The notes beneath the pieces were generated by a model. The model was given only the letters and a program-made list of their open reading frames with translations. It was not told the origin of the DNA and did no database searches. From IMG/VR virus record IMGVR_UViG_2588253749_000006: a stretch of DNA of 37,960 bases; one strand, 5' to 3'. The DNA comes from a virus (Duplodnaviria; Heunggongvirae; Uroviricota; Caudoviricetes). Shown piece after piece: positions 3,620 to 11,154 of the stretch. The translations under genes were made by a program, and so were the position numbers. Numbering within the stretch: position 1 is the stretch's first letter; each line of letters begins with the position of its first letter.

Positions 3620-4813
3620 TTAAACCCCTTTGACAACGTCAGCGTTGACCTGTGGAACCCCGATTTCAGCGGCCAGATTCATGGCGGCTATCACCAGGTT
3701 ACTGACGGCCAGCGGATACAACAGGCTGACCATATTTTTACGATGACTTCCCGGATTGCTCAGGCGGGCACGTATGGCATCCACTGCACTGGCGTCCATA
3801 ATGTCCGTCAGTTGTTTACCTGCCCGTTGCAGTTTGAACGTCAGAAACTCTTCAAGGTTATTGTCCAGAGGCAGAAGTTCGACCACCTCACAGCGCTGAA
3901 CGACTTCACGGACTTCCATATTGCGTTCAGACAGTTTTGTCGCCAGTTCCGGCTGGCCAATCAGCACGATGGACAGCAGTTTTTTGAAACCGGACTCCAG
4001 CTCAAAAAAGCGTTTGAGGTGTTTCAGTGTCGGAATGGGCAGACTGTGGGCCTCCTCAATCACCAGAACGTGGCTGAACCCCGCCTGGCTGCTGTCTTTC
4101 AGGACGCGATGCAACTGGCGAAAGCGGGCGTCCTGACTGCGTCTGATGCTTTCCAGTGGTGCGATGGTACTGATAATGGCTTCGGCAATAGCTGCTGCCT
4201 TCAGGGTTTTCCCTTTCACATCGTTGTCTTCCATAGCGATGATGTATGGCTCGATAACAATTACCGGCGCATTCTCGCGGTTGATACGTTCAGTCAGGTC
4301 GCGGCGCAGCGTGGATTTACCCGCACCGGACTCACCGATGACGGCCATAAACCCACCATGACGGGCTGTCTGGTACAACGCCTCACGCACGTAGCGAATG
4401 TCCGGGGTGGTGAACACATCATCAGAACCCTGCATGGCTTCGTCGGCGAACGGGTCACGGAAAAGACCAAACGCTTTTTTGGTTGCCGGGAATAACACCT
4501 GTTTTTTGAGTAACATATTCTCTTCCTCACTGAGGCTCGTTTTATCTGTGGTACCCGCTGTACGGGGAGTGGCCGCGCCCTGTACAGCATCAAAACTCTT
4601 CGCTGTATCAATCCCCTGACTTTCCAGCCAGGACGCAAGACGCCGGCGCACTTCTCCGGGGCTGGTGCGGGGCCACGCGTTATGATTCACAATCTGGGCC
4701 AGCGTGGCCTCAGAAACATCGACAGCTCTCGCCACCACCGCCTGTGGAATACGGGCCTCTTTCAGTTGCTGCTTCAGTACCAGCATGTTTCCCTCCTCAG
4801 TTGCCGTTAACAA
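3620..4813 (-). CDS. MuB-like AAA+ transposition ATPase
   Basis: Walker A GESGAGKST; N-terminal HTH-like region; immediately downstream of and overlapping the transposase gene; true start may be the internal MLVLKQQ. Confidence 0.75.
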   Translation of the reverse strand: MLTATEEGNMLVLKQQLKEARIPQAVVARAVDVSEATLAQIVNHNAWPRTSPGEVRRRLASWLESQGIDTAKSFDAVQGAATPRTAGTTDKTSLSEEENMLLKKQVLFPATKKAFGLFRDPFADEAMQGSDDVFTTPDIRYVREALYQTARHGGFMAVIGESGAGKSTLRRDLTERINRENAPVIVIEPYIIAMEDNDVKGKTLKAAAIAEAIISTIAPLESIRRSQDARFRQLHRVLKDSSQAGFSHVLVIEEAHSLPIPTLKHLKRFFELESGFKKLLSIVLIGQPELATKLSERNMEVREVVQRCEVVELLPLDNNLEEFLTFKLQRAGKQLTDIMDASAVDAIRARLSNPGSHRKNMVSLLYPLAVSNLVIAAMNLAAEIGVPQVNADVVKGV

Positions 4814-6566
4814 TGCTGATAACGCTGCTGCGGGCCGGCGTGGTCAGCGTGGCCATTACTTCATCCAGTGCGGCTTCCGGTACGCCGTCCGGGTACTGTG
4901 CCGTTAACTGGCGGTAATGTTCCGGCGTCCAGGTAAGGCCGTCGGCGCTGAACTTATCGCGTAGGGCTTTCGCGGCCTCCACATGAGTCATGGGACGTTG
5001 TTCAGTGCGCGGTCTGCGTACATCAGAGACCTGACCGCGCTTCGGTATACAGGCCGGAAGTGTGGCGTCATCAATATGTTTATACGGGTCAAGCCGCCCG
5101 CCGAACGGCAGCGCCTTCGCCTTGCGTGCGGCAGCTGCATCTGCGGCGTTGTCTGTACCGGTGACCAGCGCTTCGGTTTCTTTTGCCGCCGTCTGTGCCG
5201 GTGTTTCCGGCAGGGCTTTGTAACTTTCGCCAAATACCGCCGCGCCTTCAGCAAAGCCAAACTCGTTCTTTCTGACCTCTTCGACCAGGAAGAACGTCTC
5301 GTGGCCGTCCTCACCGGTCAGAACCACCTGTGCCACATCGCTGCGCCATGGGTTACGGGTAATCATCAGTTTTTCACCAACCAGTACGCCCGGTACCGTT
5401 GATACGTCAAATTCAGTGCCCCGGAACGAGACACGAAGTTTTGGCGTGACTTTGCGGAGTTCTGGTGTCGCCACAGCCAGTTCACGGCATACCTCAACGG
5501 AAGGCGCTTTTTTCAGCTGCTCAGCAGTAATCTTCAGCCAGATATCCGTGCGGGTTTTACCGTGGCGGCTGTGAACAGCTGTTGCGTTAAAGTGGCTACG
5601 CCATTTCGCGGCCAGCGCGTTGAGTTCTTCCAGACTGTGAACCGGCCGGAATTTCAGACCCGGCTCAAGCTTGCGTTCGATAATGTCACGCGCCTTTTCC
5701 ACCTGTCCGGTGGCGCGGGCGTTATGCGGCTTGTGCGCTATCAGGTCGATGCCCAGTGAGCGGCACATGTTTTTCGTCATACCCGCGGTGTTTGCCGAGC
5801 CGGGGTCGAGATAGAGTATTTTCGGCACGCCGTGCAGCACGTCTGCGCCGCCACGCTCCTGCATGGCGTTGATAAGCACAGAACACAGGTTCTCACCGGA
5901 TTCCGCACCCGTCACATACTCAACGTAAATCCAGCCGCTGGCATGGTCGGTAATCTCGTAACTCCACACGCGGTCACTGGCGATACGGGCAAGGTTAGCG
6001 GGTTTGTTCTTGTAGAACTTCGCGCTGTCCATCACCTGCAGCCCTTTGTGTCCATTGCTCAGGTAGTAAAGCGTGCAGAGCGAGGCATCAATCTGCCAGA
6101 CGTGATTGGGATGCAGACTGGCCACTTCGGTATGCGGCGCAGGGGCATCCAGTTGTTCCGGGTGCAGGCCATAGTTACGCAAGGCACGACTGATGGCATC
6201 TTCGGACAACGGGAAAAACTCACCGGTGGTTTCATCTGTTCTGCCTGCGGAGATAAAGCCGTTAGCCCGCAGGGTTTCCACTGCATCTGCGATGGAATAG
6301 AGACGCTTACCGTTCTTGCGGGTGGCCTCACGCAGTGTGGCAGATATCAGCGCGGCTTCGTCGCGGGTCAGGGCGCTGCGCCCGGCATCGGCGCGTTTTT
6401 TGCGTTTATCAGTCACAGATACCTCCTTCAGCTTGCGCAGCAGAGTGGCGCGGGACATGCCAAGTTCAGCACAGGCAGCGTCGTATATTGCACCGCGTTT
6501 ACCATGCCCCGCGTCACGTGCCGCGCGGGCGACATAAACCAGTCGTTCAGTCAGGGCAGCATTCAT
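4797..6566 (-). CDS. Mu A-type DDE transposase
   Basis: 589 aa; N-terminal HTH; HVWQIDAS and YLDPGS candidate DDE blocks; followed by the MuB-like gene. Confidence 0.8.
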   Translation of the reverse strand: MNAALTERLVYVARAARDAGHGKRGAIYDAACAELGMSRATLLRKLKEVSVTDKRKKRADAGRSALTRDEAALISATLREATRKNGKRLYSIADAVETLRANGFISAGRTDETTGEFFPLSEDAISRALRNYGLHPEQLDAPAPHTEVASLHPNHVWQIDASLCTLYYLSNGHKGLQVMDSAKFYKNKPANLARIASDRVWSYEITDHASGWIYVEYVTGAESGENLCSVLINAMQERGGADVLHGVPKILYLDPGSANTAGMTKNMCRSLGIDLIAHKPHNARATGQVEKARDIIERKLEPGLKFRPVHSLEELNALAAKWRSHFNATAVHSRHGKTRTDIWLKITAEQLKKAPSVEVCRELAVATPELRKVTPKLRVSFRGTEFDVSTVPGVLVGEKLMITRNPWRSDVAQVVLTGEDGHETFFLVEEVRKNEFGFAEGAAVFGESYKALPETPAQTAAKETEALVTGTDNAADAAAARKAKALPFGGRLDPYKHIDDATLPACIPKRGQVSDVRRPRTEQRPMTHVEAAKALRDKFSADGLTWTPEHYRQLTAQYPDGVPEAALDEVMATLTTPARSSVISIVNGN

Positions 6567-7491: not shown

Positions 7492-7800
7492 TTACAAACG
7501 ACTACCTGAAATAACACGTTGGTTGATTTCGTTAATGCGATCCTGTGCACGTGCCATCTCGTTACTGTGGGCCATGGCGATCTGCAGCAACTGGATGCCT
7601 GGTGCGAAACGCCCGTTTTCCAGTTTCAGGGCTAGTCCCTCTTCGATAAGGGTATTGAGTGCTCGATTGATGTTCGCCGGGGACTCATCTAGGGCTGATG
7701 CCAGTTCACCGTTAGAAACACCGTTCAGAGAGTGACCGCGTAGAGCTTTGAGTACACGTAGGATGCGGGTCCCGGAACTGGAGATATTTACTTTACTCAT
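7492..7800 (-). CDS. winged-HTH DNA-binding protein (IclR-like N-terminal HTH only)
   Basis: Internal Met MSKVNISS of track ORF 7492..7863; GTRILRVLKAL ... GELASALDESPANINRALNTLIEEGLA. Confidence 0.45.
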   Translation of the reverse strand: MSKVNISSSGTRILRVLKALRGHSLNGVSNGELASALDESPANINRALNTLIEEGLALKLENGRFAPGIQLLQIAMAHSNEMARAQDRINEINQRVISGSRL

Positions 7801-7852
7801 GTCACATTTCCATTTTTGCAATATGTGATAACCTGTTGCATATATGGAAAAT

Positions 7853-8041
7853 TTATGCCGCATTTGACGTGGGTTTTAATCCCAGCTTTACGGCAATTTC
7901 ATGGGCTTTGCCGTAACGAGCTTTGGTCTGTCCATTGAGAACACGATAGACCTCATTGCGGCTGTAGCCGTGTTCTTCGGCCCAGCGGGTAAACGTGATA
8001 CCACGCTGACGGAAGAGAGTTTTAACTTGTTCGGAAGTCAT
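7853..8041 (-). CDS. Ner-like small DNA-binding regulator
   Basis: 62 aa; GITFTRWAEEHGYSRNEVYRVL ... HEIAVKLGLKP resembles the Ner/Nlp fold; first gene of the leftward operon, divergent from the repressor. Confidence 0.5.
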   Translation of the reverse strand: MTSEQVKTLFRQRGITFTRWAEEHGYSRNEVYRVLNGQTKARYGKAHEIAVKLGLKPTSNAA

Positions 8042-8130
8042 TGTTGTCTCCTTTGTTGATGCAATGATGTTTGTTTTATATGTGATAGATTATGAGAACT
8101 ATTGTTCTCATTGTCAATGAGGTTTATGTG
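8040..8130. promoter_or_regulatory. divergent early/repressor control region with operator-like palindrome
   Basis: Short AT-rich gap between divergent ner-like and repressor genes; perfect inverted repeat TGAGAACTATTGTTCTCA at about 8093..8110. Confidence 0.4.
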
Positions 8131-8553
8131 AATTTTGATTCTCTTTGCGCGTCGCGGTTCAAAGCTGAGCGTTCGCGGTTATCACTCAAGCAGGCTGAAG
8201 TAGCAGCCCTTTGTGGCGTTTCAAGAGAAATGTGGGGGAAATATGAACGAGGGGTTGCAGTTCCCGGAGGTGAGTTACTTGCAGCCTTTGCAAGAATTGG
8301 GGCCAACGTACAGTTCATTCTTACTGGGGAATCATCAGGTATAACTTTATCACGTGATGAAATGGAGTTACTTCAGCACTACCGGCAAGCACCGTTACAA
8401 GTCAAAGGTTCAGTTTTGTCGGCATTGACGACTGGCTCCTCCAGAGAACGGGCGGAACAGGTTATTCATGGAGATGTTCTGGGGAATGTTATCAAAGGTA
8501 ACGTAACCATAGGAACAGGTGGAATAATGAACAAAAATACAAAGAGAAAATGA
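8092..8553 (+). CDS. XRE-family HTH repressor (immunity repressor candidate)
   Basis: HTH LSLKQAEVAALCGVSREMWGKYERG; divergent from the ner-like gene; true start may be the GTG near 8128 because the annotated ATG overlaps a palindrome. Confidence 0.65.
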   Translation: MRTIVLIVNEVYVNFDSLCASRFKAERSRLSLKQAEVAALCGVSREMWGKYERGVAVPGGELLAAFARIGANVQFILTGESSGITLSRDEMELLQHYRQAPLQVKGSVLSALTTGSSRERAEQVIHGDVLGNVIKGNVTIGTGGIMNKNTKRK

Positions 8554-9536
8554 GTAAAGAGAAGCAAACAGTTAACGGAGATGTGGGTAACGTTGTCAGC
8601 GGTGATGTTACCATTCATAACTATTCTGCTGACATACTTCCCTCTGCCCAGCAACCAATTTCGTTGCTGCAAAAACGCGATTTACACAGATTGATGGATG
8701 AATTGGTTGATCTGGGGGAAAGTAAGCGCGAACTATGGATGACGATCCACACGAAACTTAATACCAAAACAGTTAATGAAATGACTGCGGCTGATTATCA
8801 TGGTGCGGTTGAGATCCTCCAGAGATATGCACAACAGATCCAGAATATGAAGGACTGTAATCTTCTGGTCAGCAAAATAATGGTGCTTACTGACCCTAGG
8901 TATCGTCTTGACCGTGACAGATACTGTCTGAAGCATTTCGGTACAACCCATCTTAAAGGCCTGGACAAAGAGCAGTTGCAGGCTGTGTTTGGTTATTTTG
9001 ATGATCTGCTGAATATTCGTGATGAGAGTAAAACTCTATCACCTCCATCGGACAGCGGGGCAAAATCAGTCGCGACTGTACCAACCAGAAGCCGGAAGCC
9101 TCATGTAGTAGTGTTGGGGGGAGCGTTAGTTCTTGTCGCAATATTTTTCGTGGGAATGATTGTGTTCGCTGGTAAATGGGGAAATGCTAAAGCAGTAGCA
9201 TCTACTGAAACCAGCGTTTTTAACATTAAAACCAACGACAAAATAATAGAAGATTCCATCCCAGCATTACGCAGCATGTTTCCAGGGTTAAATAAGTACT
9301 CAGATGATTTCCATTCGGTTTCAAGCTACAAGCAAAAATCGGGCTGGCATACCCTTAAATTCACGGTGTCTACACAGGCAATAATACCTGAATCTTATGG
9401 TGTTAAAGGGAAAACTTGTTACATCAACATAAACCCCGATGGTCGTTATGCCCGTGTTTTGACCGCCCCATGTAGAGCTCTATTACTTGACCAACAAAAC
9501 ACTCCAGATAGTAAATATCGTTATATTTTGAAATAG
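8550..9536 (+). CDS. unknown single-pass membrane protein, translationally coupled to the repressor
   Basis: 328 aa; ATGA start/stop overlap with the repressor gene; central hydrophobic segment VVVLGGALVLVAIFFVGMIVFAG; AT-rich. Confidence 0.6.
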   Translation: MSKEKQTVNGDVGNVVSGDVTIHNYSADILPSAQQPISLLQKRDLHRLMDELVDLGESKRELWMTIHTKLNTKTVNEMTAADYHGAVEILQRYAQQIQNMKDCNLLVSKIMVLTDPRYRLDRDRYCLKHFGTTHLKGLDKEQLQAVFGYFDDLLNIRDESKTLSPPSDSGAKSVATVPTRSRKPHVVVLGGALVLVAIFFVGMIVFAGKWGNAKAVASTETSVFNIKTNDKIIEDSIPALRSMFPGLNKYSDDFHSVSSYKQKSGWHTLKFTVSTQAIIPESYGVKGKTCYININPDGRYARVLTAPCRALLLDQQNTPDSKYRYILK

Positions 9537-9556: not shown

Positions 9557-10048
9557 ATGGGGCTAATTAAACGATATAGAACAGATTATCCGAACCAAGT
9601 ACATCAACTTTCTGTTGCTGTTTCAAAGCATTATTATGCGGGAGTTGATGGATTGCTTAAGTACCAGAAAAAACCATTTGATATAAAACTTAGCAATGCA
9701 AGTAAAACTGGAAAAGATCATTTACTAGTCTATTCGTTACGCGATCACTACAGTGGTTTGTTTTATATAGAATTGGCATTTCTTTCTACACCACAACCTA
9801 TAACAGCTTTTTTGGGAAGGGCATGGAGGCCAAAGGAAGATAACGTGTTACAGGGTCTTCCTGATATGCTGATGATCCCCAAAACTGTAGAAGATGAGTT
9901 CCCTAACGTATGTAATGCCGTTTATAACCAAGGAGTTGATCTTTTAAAAGTAACCAGCGGTTTTCAGAGTGGAGGGCTTATCGCCATACGAGCGGTAGAG
10001 GAAGATCTTAAATTCTACACAAATACTCCTATAGCACGAGTTTCGTGA
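9557..10048 (+). CDS. unknown protein, second gene of the repressor-linked cassette
   Basis: 163-aa ORF 20 bp after the previous gene; AT-rich; no recognisable motif. Confidence 0.5.
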   Translation: MGLIKRYRTDYPNQVHQLSVAVSKHYYAGVDGLLKYQKKPFDIKLSNASKTGKDHLLVYSLRDHYSGLFYIELAFLSTPQPITAFLGRAWRPKEDNVLQGLPDMLMIPKTVEDEFPNVCNAVYNQGVDLLKVTSGFQSGGLIAIRAVEEDLKFYTNTPIARVS

Positions 10049-10339
10049 GGTTGCGGTTAAAACATGCAGATACAATGCTAATGATATCGCCCGAACCAAT
10101 AAAGAAACAAAGCAAGAGATGTGGTTACGAAACGTCGGTCAGATAGATATACCTTCTCCAGATTTTTGAAACCTGAAATCACGGTGTCGACGGTTCATTC
10201 TGACGCATCATTTATTCTCGTCAGTTGCCTCATATTCGTGCGTGCTAGGAAACATCGGCCAGAATATGTCTGGCATGGCGGCGTTTACAACCAATCCATG
10301 GAGCGATGGGGAATGTCTGCATTTTCATAATCTGTAACC

Positions 10340-10470
10340 CTTTTATAATTATAAAAAATATGGCAGGCTAGTCTGGTCTCGCGAGACTGACTGAACCTCG
10401 GTCGGCTCACAGTGCATTCCTGTGGGGCGATGACCAGCCCGGAGTTCGGGTACCGGGCTGGTCGTTCTTT
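10340..10470 (+). ncRNA. candidate small structured RNA (promoter-like TATAAT, two hairpins, T-rich tail)
   Basis: Palindromic TTTTATAATTATAAAA, then GTCTCGCGAGAC palindrome, then an 11-bp perfect stem GACCAGCCCGG/CCGGGCTGGTC followed by GTCGTTCTTT, inside a 530-bp gap. Confidence 0.2.
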
Positions 10471-10578
10471 CACTGTCAGAGTTCAGAGTGAAGTTTTGAG
10501 ATACATGATTTCTATTAACGCGATTTACTGGATGCATTACCTACGTGCAGTGTTTGTTCGATAAGGATTGTTTTCTGA

Positions 10579-11154
10579 ATGGGAACGTATTACACACTTG
10601 ATTCCGCTAGTCGTCTGCCTTCGCCTTGTCATGTAATTACCGGAAAATACGAGCCTGAAATGCCAGAACTGGCCGCTTTTCTTCATCAGATGTATCCCAA
10701 TGGCCTTTCGAGTCACGGGTATAACTATCTCTATAACCCCGGCCCTAAAATGGAAGATGACAGTGGAATCAGCAGAAGTCTGCTGGTCGGTCTGGTGTTT
10801 GAGTTAGTTCGCCGTAGCCATTTTCCTGATAAACCTTCCCGCTATCAGTCACTGTTTGCCTGTCAGCATCTGAGTGAAGTCAGGAAGTTCAGGGAATTAC
10901 TGGCTGATGAGAGAGGCGAAGACGAAATAAGAACGGCACCGATATATGAAGTCATCACAAATGAGCAGGTGCATCGCGGAGATATGAGGTTATTGAACAG
11001 TGATTGCCCGGTGCTGGAACTGTATCACCGTGCTTGGCTTTACTGGTCGGGTGAAGCAGCCCCAGTTAAGACTGGTGAGGACGAACCGTTCTGGGAACTG
11101 CTGATTCCGCTTCCAGTATTCGTTGGTCGAAGGATAACTGAATCGCAGGATTAG
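10579..11154 (+). CDS. unknown protein (accessory region)
   Basis: 191-aa ORF with an upstream AAGGA. Confidence 0.5.
   Translation: MGTYYTLDSASRLPSPCHVITGKYEPEMPELAAFLHQMYPNGLSSHGYNYLYNPGPKMEDDSGISRSLLVGLVFELVRRSHFPDKPSRYQSLFACQHLSEVRKFRELLADERGEDEIRTAPIYEVITNEQVHRGDMRLLNSDCPVLELYHRAWLYWSGEAAPVKTGEDEPFWELLIPLPVFVGRRITESQD

Follow-up and report, generated by a model that had tools for sequence, protein, structure and literature searches.

Matching peptide tags on a repressor and the adjoining membrane protein of a BcepMu-like Escherichia coli prophage, and their co-variation across related prophages

Results

Near-identical peptides on a repressor and the following protein

The window analysed here, the whole 37,960-bp stretch of viral DNA in IMG/VR record IMGVR_UViG_2588253749_000006, is a complete BcepMu-like transposable prophage of Escherichia coli, in which a lysogeny-repressor-like helix-turn-helix (HTH) gene of the XRE family (8092..8553, plus strand; 153 amino acids as annotated) is followed by a gene for a predicted membrane protein, called the partner below (8550..9536, plus strand; 328 amino acids; phrog_10002, unknown function). 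The C-terminal tail of the repressor and the N-terminus of the partner carry similar peptides, and the comparison with related prophages showed that selection preserves the likeness of these two peptides, whose proteins are neighbours and co-translated, as they diversify from phage to phage. We estimate at about 0.5 the probability that they are a matched pair of recognition tags coupling the repressor to the membrane protein.

A previous sequence-only reading of the window had noticed near-identical peptides in the C-terminal region of the repressor and at the N-terminus of the next protein, and both the sequence and the comparison across loci confirmed this. The repressor tag, HGDVLGNVIKGNVTIGTGG, is encoded at 8467..8523 (plus strand; residues 126-144) and consists of G-[DN]-V-x-x pentads, and the partner tag, NGDVGNVVSGDVTIHN, is encoded at 8574..8621 (plus strand; residues 9-24). 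The nucleotide matches listed in that reading are also present (GGAGATGTT at 8470-8478 and GGAGATGTG at 8577-8585; GGTAACGTAACCATA and GGTGATGTTACCATT), and the two tag regions form direct repeats, 104 nt apart and 77% identical as DNA. The repressor does not end with the motif, since the tag is directly followed by a Lys/Arg-rich end, IMNKNTKRK (8524..8550, plus strand).

The similarity goes beyond what chance would produce between Gly/Val-rich segments, the objection that the same reading had foreseen: the BLOSUM62 local score of the tag pair is 55, compared with 30.0±4.8 for 2,000 shuffles of the repressor (3 of the 2,000 reach 55), and permutation and six-frame tests excluded chance. There is no third copy of the tag in the six frames of the whole window (next best score 33 versus 54). 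Searches of the tag peptides against Pfam at E≤10 gave no meaningful family and no pentapeptide-repeat match, and no other library recognised them. Among the structure predictions that had been suggested, AlphaFold2 models of the proteins alone gave both tags a predicted local distance difference test (pLDDT) score below 50 beside confident domains. In the repressor model (34 homologues), the HTH and two further helices were confident at residues 15-114 and the tail (residues 122-153) was below 50; in the partner model, residues 1-30, which include the tag, were below 50, and a helical region (residues 35-158) and an α/β region (residues 225-328) were confident.

Co-variation of the two peptides across related prophages

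Loci around repressor homologues were collected (39 genomic and 80 viral loci), and in the 61 non-redundant pairs the last 40 residues of the repressor were compared with the first 45 residues of the next plus-strand open reading frame. The repressor homologues carry quite different Gly/Asn/Val-rich tails, each with a Lys/Arg-rich end, and whichever tail is present, the N-terminus encoded downstream matches it. The alignment across related prophages that the sequence-only reading had proposed thus found the matching of tail and N-terminus in 31 of the 61 non-redundant loci, in at least 10 unrelated motif classes. Examples of a tail and its partner are GNRVAGRDFNENKK and QNRVAGRDFNENK in locus L015 (in a shorter form, GNRVAGRDFNENK and QNRVAGRDFNENK), GHRFALGDYHE and EHRIALGDYYE, QVFHGNVSGQFAGNQIVNN and QEFNGTASGQFSARDIIN (L004), GHRFALGDYHENK and EHRIALGDYYEH (L104), AGGVQVGYVGGSV and SGGVQVGKVDGDV (L123), DGQVSAENIYNIG and VGQVAANNIYNIY (L085), GAQAAGRNIVN and GGQAAGRDINN (L096), KNVAGRDII and KNVAQRDVI (L038), and IGQVVDGDIKN and IGQVAAGDIIN (L021); a pattern scan added further classes, among them QQFNGPVGTVTTGDVVN and QQFHGAVEQVAAGDIKN.

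Cognate pairs had a mean score of 36.4 and non-cognate pairs one of 20.8, and none of 20,000 permutations of these pairs, which are related by descent, reached the observed mean. The co-variation was also seen within a single class: in AGRDY, the largest, the cognate mean was 53.7 versus 49.7±1.4 after permutation (reached by 128 of 20,000 permutations). When about 6 kb per locus was scanned in six frames with no gene assumed, the best match to the tail lay 6-80 nt past the repressor stop codon and on the same strand in 31 of the 61 loci. The reverse scan started from the partner side, using loci with Flk_N, a domain of the flagellar protein Flk; in each of the 80 Flk_N loci (39 distinct combinations) an XRE gene lies upstream and its tail matches, and the HTH domains of these genes are of several types. 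The motif pair occurs in two types of prophage backbone, Mu-like transposable and integrase-type. In a Burkholderiaceae prophage from a metagenome-assembled genome (L246/L247), the gene after a repressor with a His/Val/Gly-rich tail, IRIDGTVHGHVVQGDVVQHG, encodes a DUF4236 membrane protein that has no matching N-terminus; the partner may have been replaced there.

Codon use, selection and inheritance

The 31 matching pairs had a mean aligned length of 18.6 residues with 52% identity. The same codon is used in 133 of the 303 identical residues (112 expected), and 56% of them use different codons; this low codon sharing indicates that the similarity of the tags is maintained at the level of the protein. 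By the codon test, gene conversion was rejected as an explanation of the similarity. Among orthologues of the window pair, the differences are mostly synonymous (for example, 18 synonymous versus 4 non-synonymous in the tail of L054), and both peptides are under purifying selection. Between orthologous tails of different classes the likeness does not exceed background, while within a phage the two copies have remained similar, a pattern that independent drift after a single duplication cannot explain.

Repressors whose HTH is 34-52% identical to that of the window have tails that are 86-94% identical to its tail. Locus L245 has an HTH 82% identical to that of the window, yet it has a variant tail, VIHGNVMGNVIEGGATFNAP, and the start of its partner, DVNGDVSGHVVGGDFNINYH, follows the change. 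The tail assorts with the partner gene and not with the DNA-binding domain, and the tail and the partner behave as one portable module. The 'cargo cassette' of the sequence-only reading was partly right in this sense, that tail and partner move as a unit. Its suggestion that the repeats mark the recombination joint where the cargo was acquired was not supported, as the pair is found in many diverged prophages of two backbone types, both peptides are under purifying selection, and different codons encode 56% of the identical residues. In both proteins the motif ranks with the best-conserved parts, and from such comparisons the tag pair does not seem to be a recombination scar. The other suggestion, a shared interaction tag, is supported indirectly but strongly by the co-variation across at least 10 classes, by that within one class, and by the assortment of the tail with the partner gene instead of the HTH.

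Composition and arrangement of the tags

Compared with the remainder of their proteins, the tags are enriched in Asn (2.9-fold), Gly (2.3-fold), His (2.3-fold), Val (1.5-fold) and Gln (1.4-fold) and depleted in Leu (0.15-fold) and Pro (0.12-fold); Lys is not depleted in the tag flank. A bias towards N, G, Q, V and I with few P and L residues was reported both for the amyloid-signalling motifs of bacteria and for β-helices (Dyrka et al., bioRxiv 10.1101/2020.01.06.895854). The last eight residues contain on average 2.9 Lys/Arg in tails that match their partner versus 1.6 in non-matching repressors, and the Lys/Arg ends are similar in all tail classes (NKKKK, ENKK, GGKKKQ, VKRKR). Many partners have a second pseudo-repeat (…AGRDFHE…ARDINIF…, …TINIAIP…; for example, NRTAGRDFHE...ARDINIF), and the repressor has essentially one. 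The NRVAGRDY class serves unrelated partner bodies, either Flk_N with a transmembrane helix or a zinc ribbon with two helices, and the helical hairpin before the tail is constant across the tag classes. Because one class serves unrelated bodies and the hairpin does not change, the class-specific counterpart of a tag is most simply the other tag.

The partner protein

The start of the partner gene overlaps the stop of the repressor gene by ATGA (8550-8553), an arrangement through which the two genes are translationally coupled. The junction at 8540-8556 reads AGA AAA TGA with the partner ATG in the -1 frame, and a -1 slip of tRNA-Lys on A-AAA at the repressor stop would give an in-frame fusion of repressor and partner. 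A programmed -1 slip as a general feature was rejected, since the ATGA overlap is found only in the window clade and L245, and the other pairs have gaps of 3-36 nt.

The tag is followed by a Flk_N-like helical domain, presumably cytoplasmic (8652..9023, plus strand; residues ~35-158), that is modelled as entirely helical with pLDDT ~90. The partner matched the NCBIfam model for Flk (NF007987) with E=1.6e-11 over residues 19-147, at 44 bits compared with an equivalog cut-off of 353 bits, and precomputed Pfam annotation places Flk_N (PF27202) on the partner homologues and on the downstream genes of three other loci. A single transmembrane helix, VVVLGGALVLVAIFFVGMIVFAG (9105..9173, plus strand; residues 186-208), has a Kyte-Doolittle value of 2.9. 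In most related partners the membrane helix is at the extreme C-terminus as a tail anchor, as in Flk, and the partner is predicted to be a cytoplasm-facing, membrane-anchored Flk-like protein. Past the membrane helix there is an extra α/β domain (9222..9533, plus strand; residues ~225-328; pLDDT >90), presumably periplasmic, which occurs only in the partner clade of the window.

Neither the model of the whole partner nor its α/β domain had a significant fold match in PDB or BFVD. The α/β domain also stands alone in many proteins of 120-200 amino acids and is found in Klebsiella phage KP12 and Escherichia phage Phi06_2974 B (25% identity). For residues ~35-100 of the partner, Foldseek gave a non-significant likeness to the C-terminal peptide-binding domain of Redβ (8tfu; probability 0.80, TM-score 0.61 over 64 columns, E=1.5), and the same Flk_N-like region showed weak, non-significant likeness to phage 'recombination function' proteins in BFVD.

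The motif is kept in all complete N-termini among 24 partner homologues at 45-95% identity, and G10, G13-G18, V20, I22 and Y25 show no change across 20 homologues with overall identities of 44-80%. Most partners across the loci are Flk_N-like proteins of 185-270 amino acids with a C-terminal membrane helix; the other partners that share tag classes are 120-amino-acid zinc-ribbon proteins with two membrane helices, other two-helix proteins and, rarely, small soluble proteins. No partner type matched a toxin or defence family in Pfam, PADLOC or NCBIfam, or a toxin family in PHROGs, and no NTPase domain was found in the partners with Pfam, NCBIfam and PADLOC. The Flk_N-like family is small, with 115 representatives among 1.84 billion proteins. 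Its phage-type members almost all begin with a Gly/Asn/Val-rich tag, which genuine Flk proteins do not. None of the 115 representatives is an 'all-in-one' fusion of HTH and Flk_N, the Flk_N match falling within the first ~60 residues in all of them. The partner is almost entirely absent from the cultured phages of the INPHARED collection.

The repressor, its start codon and its operator

The repressor gene product matches HTH_31 and HTH_3 in Pfam and is annotated by PGAP as 'helix-turn-helix domain-containing protein'. The gene is on the plus strand, divergent from a minus-strand early operon that includes a ner-like HTH gene of the 'BcepMu_gp16 family' (7853-8041), an IclR-like HTH gene (7492-7863), a DUF3102 gene, an rve transposase gene (4797-6566) and others. 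An early promoter-like site directed leftwards lies at 8117-8089 (minus strand; TTGACA-17-CATAAT, σ70-like, 11 of 12 matches), and its spacer contains a perfect 8+4+8 palindrome, ATGAGAAC-TATT-GTTCTCAT (8092-8111). This palindrome is the probable operator of the repressor, placed over the early promoter. Because the HTH gene is divergent from the early operon and the candidate operator covers the early promoter, the gene is in the position of an immunity repressor; the gene order together with the palindrome agrees with the position of a Mu/BcepMu-type c repressor, and a repressor role is predicted.

The annotated ATG at 8092 is situated inside the promoter-like site and the palindrome, most repressor homologues start with MNFDSL, and a Shine-Dalgarno-like TGAGG (8118-8122) precedes a GTG at 8128 by 5 nt. 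For these three reasons the real start is probably the GTG at 8128, which would give a protein of 141 amino acids and make the deposited annotation of 153 amino acids 12 codons too long.

Related repressors P0092, P0093 and P0102 have a peptidase S24 domain where the window repressor has its tail. A different arrangement is seen in Lonsdalea and Pseudomonas prophages, where the repressors of L009-L013, L019, L020, L023, L025 and L097 have a helical C-terminal domain (…VLKLVINH) and no Gly-rich tail. Downstream of these repressors are membrane proteins of 150-177 amino acids with an N-terminal helix and an internal Gly-rich motif (ITISVGGDNPGSIHVGSVVN or IKIKGDYGNINLGTQ). These prophages may couple through a different interface, or the motif may primarily drive self-assembly of the partner.

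Discussion

Proposed recognition between the tags and its possible consequences

In our proposal, tags of about 16-22 residues, one on a flexible linker at the C-terminus of the repressor and the other at the extreme N-terminus of the partner, would pair like-with-like as in-register β-strands, in a β-zipper or a β-solenoid-like co-assembly. A homotypic β co-assembly is proposed because in-register β-sheet pairing needs likeness, not complementarity, in the same N-to-C order. Direct binding of the tags has, in our judgement, slightly better than even odds, and the β-type homotypic mode of pairing is a conjecture that falls a little short of them. The pairing would link the repressor, physically and in a phage-specific way, to a Flk-like protein anchored in the membrane and facing the cytoplasm, and through the ATGA overlap the synthesis of both tags would be coupled in space and time. 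The partner could then set the amount of repressor free for DNA, by titration at the membrane or by the break-up of tail-mediated oligomers, with the logic of SinI/SinR or of a membrane anti-sigma factor. This would be an alternative route to induction or to the tuning of immunity for repressors without a LexA-type cleavage domain, and the divergence into many tag classes would prevent cross-talk between co-resident prophages.

That the partner regulates the repressor is a tentative choice of direction, and a doubtful one. Flk itself is an inhibitor that is anchored in the membrane, acts in the cytoplasm and keeps a cytoplasmic machine in a single state. We slightly prefer control of the repressor because Flk-like proteins are inhibitory tethers, because an S24 domain replaces the tail in relatives, and because the outer domain of the partner is sensor-like.

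Several observations weigh against the coupling of repressor and membrane protein by matched tags. There is a small excess of shared codons (0.44 versus 0.37, p=0.007), which leaves room for occasional gene conversion, and the permutation p-values overstate independence because the pairs are related by descent. Loci L022, L024, L027/L246 and L089 have a Gly-rich tail and no matching neighbour; in L027/L246 the next protein belongs to DUF4236. The tail-less repressors of L009-L013 and L019 precede membrane proteins with an internal Gly-rich motif, so that the motif may primarily drive the self-assembly of the partner. The partners of L033, L114 and L123 lack a transmembrane helix, and membrane tethering is therefore not universal. 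Finally, the small and diverse membrane bodies of many partners look at least as effector-like as regulator-like.

The opposite direction is a toxin-antitoxin or guard module, in which the repressor tag with its polybasic cap would co-assemble with a self-assembling membrane effector and block it; we regard it as nearly as likely as the preferred direction, likewise with a minority chance. Loss of the repressor by induction, curing or a superinfecting phage might then free the effector and lead to depolarisation, timing of lysis or superinfection exclusion, a consequence that is conceivable to the same degree. In classical type II toxin-antitoxin systems, the gene of the DNA-binding antitoxin comes first and the C-terminal tail of the antitoxin is disordered. 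The order in the window is likewise an XRE gene and then a membrane protein gene, with an ATGA overlap and a tail with pLDDT below 50, and the partner bodies across the loci are diverse, mostly small membrane proteins with one or two helices and some with zinc ribbons. The two pseudo-repeats of many partners versus the one of the repressor resemble the effector and receptor sides of HET-s and BASS pairs, and the Lys/Arg-rich end is beside the tag on the repressor side only. In addition, the existence of partner-type proteins with an internal motif and without a repressor tail suggests self-assembly as the ancestral role of the motif. On the other hand, no partner matched a known family of toxins or defence proteins, the body found most often is a large helical Flk-like domain whose homologue is a regulatory tether without toxicity, and the folded extracytoplasmic domain of the window partner looks sensor-like.

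Either direction could also operate through amyloid-like (prion-type) templating as in HET-s/NWD2 and BASS, in which the clustered tags of one protein would nucleate a cross-β fold that spreads to the tags of the other and switches its activity irreversibly. A membrane event might irreversibly convert and inactivate the repressor, or the loss or clustering of the repressor might fire a membrane effector. We think it unlikely that the tail and the N-terminus are cognate amyloid-signalling motifs and that prion-like templating governs lysogeny switches or prophage membrane effectors, and the templating version of either direction is about as unlikely. The genomic signature is the same, with a short motif shared between the C-terminus of one gene product and the N-terminus of its neighbour; the aligned length (~18.6 residues) and the identity between partners (~52%), the composition bias that fits BASS, the pLDDT below 50 of the tags in monomers, the pseudo-repeats on one side and the membrane association of one partner are in line with it, and the G-[DN]-V-x-x pentads of the window tag total ~20 residues, equal to one coil of a β-solenoid. 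However, there is no NLR/STAND NTPase or other obvious oligomerising receptor, and the polarity of the tags is inverted relative to the membrane protein. The polybasic end beside the repressor tag would disfavour stacking, BASS pairs have been reported from multicellular bacteria and not from Proteobacteria, the tags matched no Pfam or BASS model, and a simple 1:1 β-augmentation explains the data equally well.

It is less probable still that both tags bind a third factor, such as a host or phage protease, a chaperone or a docking site, for which the partner would be a competitor or decoy of the repressor tail. Competition for one site predicts likeness in the same N-to-C order, Flk-like domains bind other proteins, and in phage Mu the C-terminal tail of the repressor controls its sensitivity to ClpXP. 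At least 10 unrelated classes, however, are present in the same host groups (GDV-GNV and AGRDY in E. coli and Salmonella, SGQF in Pectobacterium and Dickeya), and a constant host factor would not force class-specific co-variation, which weakens this explanation. Moreover, neither a third tag copy nor an obvious receptor gene specific to the class is present in the 38-kb prophage, and no co-variation with the class is seen in the conserved hairpin or in the partner bodies.

A functionless historical residue (junction duplication, gene conversion of short direct repeats or chance low-complexity likeness) would account for direct repeats 104 nt apart with 77% DNA identity and for the slight excess of shared codons, but it is very improbable given the recurrence of the pair across many classes and backbones, the purifying selection that acts on its two copies, the different codons in 56% of identical residues, the position of the motif among the best-conserved parts of both proteins and the permutation and six-frame tests that exclude chance.

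Comparison with known systems

The closest counterparts in architecture are the amyloid-signalling pairs (HET-s/NWD2 with the HRAM, σ and PP motifs in fungi; BASS1-10 with Bell-domain effectors and NLRs in bacteria; RHIM in animals). They share with the prophage pairs a motif of ~20-25 amino acids at a C-terminus and the adjacent N-terminus, many unrelated classes that match within a pair, a composition rich in N, G, Q, V and I and poor in P and L, one-sided pseudo-repeats and one membrane-acting partner. They differ in that the prophage pairs have no NLR/STAND receptor, their partners being Flk_N with a transmembrane helix, a zinc ribbon with two helices, or other small proteins. The C-terminal tag is here on a DNA-binding repressor and the N-terminal tag on a membrane protein, the inverse polarity, with a polybasic end after one tag. 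The hosts are unicellular Proteobacteria and their prophages.

For the logic of a copied C-terminal element, the closest precedent is SinR/SinI (and SlrR/SlrA) of Bacillus subtilis, where the C-terminal oligomerisation element of an XRE repressor is duplicated in an adjacent small protein and the heteromer takes the repressor off DNA. Both systems have an XRE-family HTH repressor and a look-alike element in an adjacent gene, which in the window overlaps the repressor gene. The SinI element (PF08671) is helical, whereas the prophage element is a Gly/Asn/Val-rich peptide, and neither prophage protein has a SinI match in Pfam. SinI is also soluble, with no membrane anchor, and shows no diversification into many classes, and SinR does not serve as an immunity repressor of a phage.

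Flk (Fluke/RflH), the inhibitor of the type III secretion switch in flagella, has an N-terminal domain homologous to the cytoplasmic helical domain of the partner. The phage members are 185-330 amino acids long versus 340-427 for Flk, and the score is 44 versus the 353-bit cut-off. True Flk starts with MQPxSxPG and has no tag, whereas the phage members adjoin a repressor and have no flagellar context.

Type II toxin-antitoxin systems (XRE/HipB/HigA antitoxins) and membrane anti-sigma factors (RseA/σE) have the same layout of a transcription factor gene followed by a translationally coupled gene. The coupled product binds the transcription factor via the C-terminal tail of the latter, and the anti-sigma factor sequesters its factor at the membrane. 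Their interfaces are complementary and not look-alike, and no known toxin or anti-sigma family was detected here. In the Death-like/EAD homotypic adaptors of conflict systems and in the docking domains of polyketide synthases and non-ribosomal peptide synthetases, cognate terminal modules on adjacent genes specify pairing; these are folded domains of 60-100 amino acids or complementary helices, in contrast to putative β-type peptides of 16-22 residues, and the protein families are unrelated.

The literature on amyloid signalling, phage repressors and immunity, Flk and prion-like lysogeny contained no description that we could find of tag pairing between a repressor and its neighbour in phages. 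The paired terminal-motif architecture is known, and its setting on a repressor and a membrane protein in prophages is new; motif pairing of a C-terminus with the next N-terminus has so far been described for NLR amyloid signalling. Mu-like and many other prophage repressors lack LexA-type self-cleavage, and how they are inactivated or tuned is often unknown. The co-evolving tag suggests an unrecognised layer of lysogeny control or a membrane effector guarded by the repressor. If the prion-like version were true, amyloid signalling would extend from the NLR immunity of multicellular organisms to viruses of unicellular Proteobacteria and to the control of transcription factors, and the many tag classes would give an immunity-like orthogonality between co-resident prophages. 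Because the tags occur in E. coli prophages, the idea can be tested directly in a tractable system, and the orthogonal tag classes could serve as a natural set of specific peptide-pairing modules.

Prophage setting and neighbouring features

Prophages in many complete E. coli genomes are 99.6-100% identical to the window, and of 5,426 complete E. coli genomes, 126 contain the 1.8-kb region around the tag pair with coverage of ≥80%. In strain TW14425 (locus L001, 1-1205), the prophage lies within the aga galactosamine phosphotransferase system operon, and the gene for subunit IID is truncated at the junction. Position 1 of the window is the prophage end that adjoins the Mor gene.

In the early region, ATATGTGATA is present twice, at 7821-7830 and 8078-8087 (within the stretches 7807-7850 and 8078-8087). 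The first copy is part of a 20-nt imperfect inverted repeat directly upstream of the IclR-like HTH gene, and the two copies may serve a further early-region regulator as a second set of operators.

Downstream of the partner gene, a hypothetical gene (9557-10048) encodes 163 amino acids in the window versus 203 in TW14425. Over 1.7 kb the two copies are 99.8% identical and set apart by a 1-bp gap, which indicates that the window copy is truncated by a frameshift near codon 162. Searches of its product against Pfam, PHROGs, PADLOC and NCBIfam gave no family. A stretch of about 0.5 kb that is apparently non-coding (10049-10578) then precedes a DUF2441 gene (10579-11154; phrog_5663, unknown function), and the stretch 10049-11154 separates the immunity module from the lysis cassette, a typical position for a moron.

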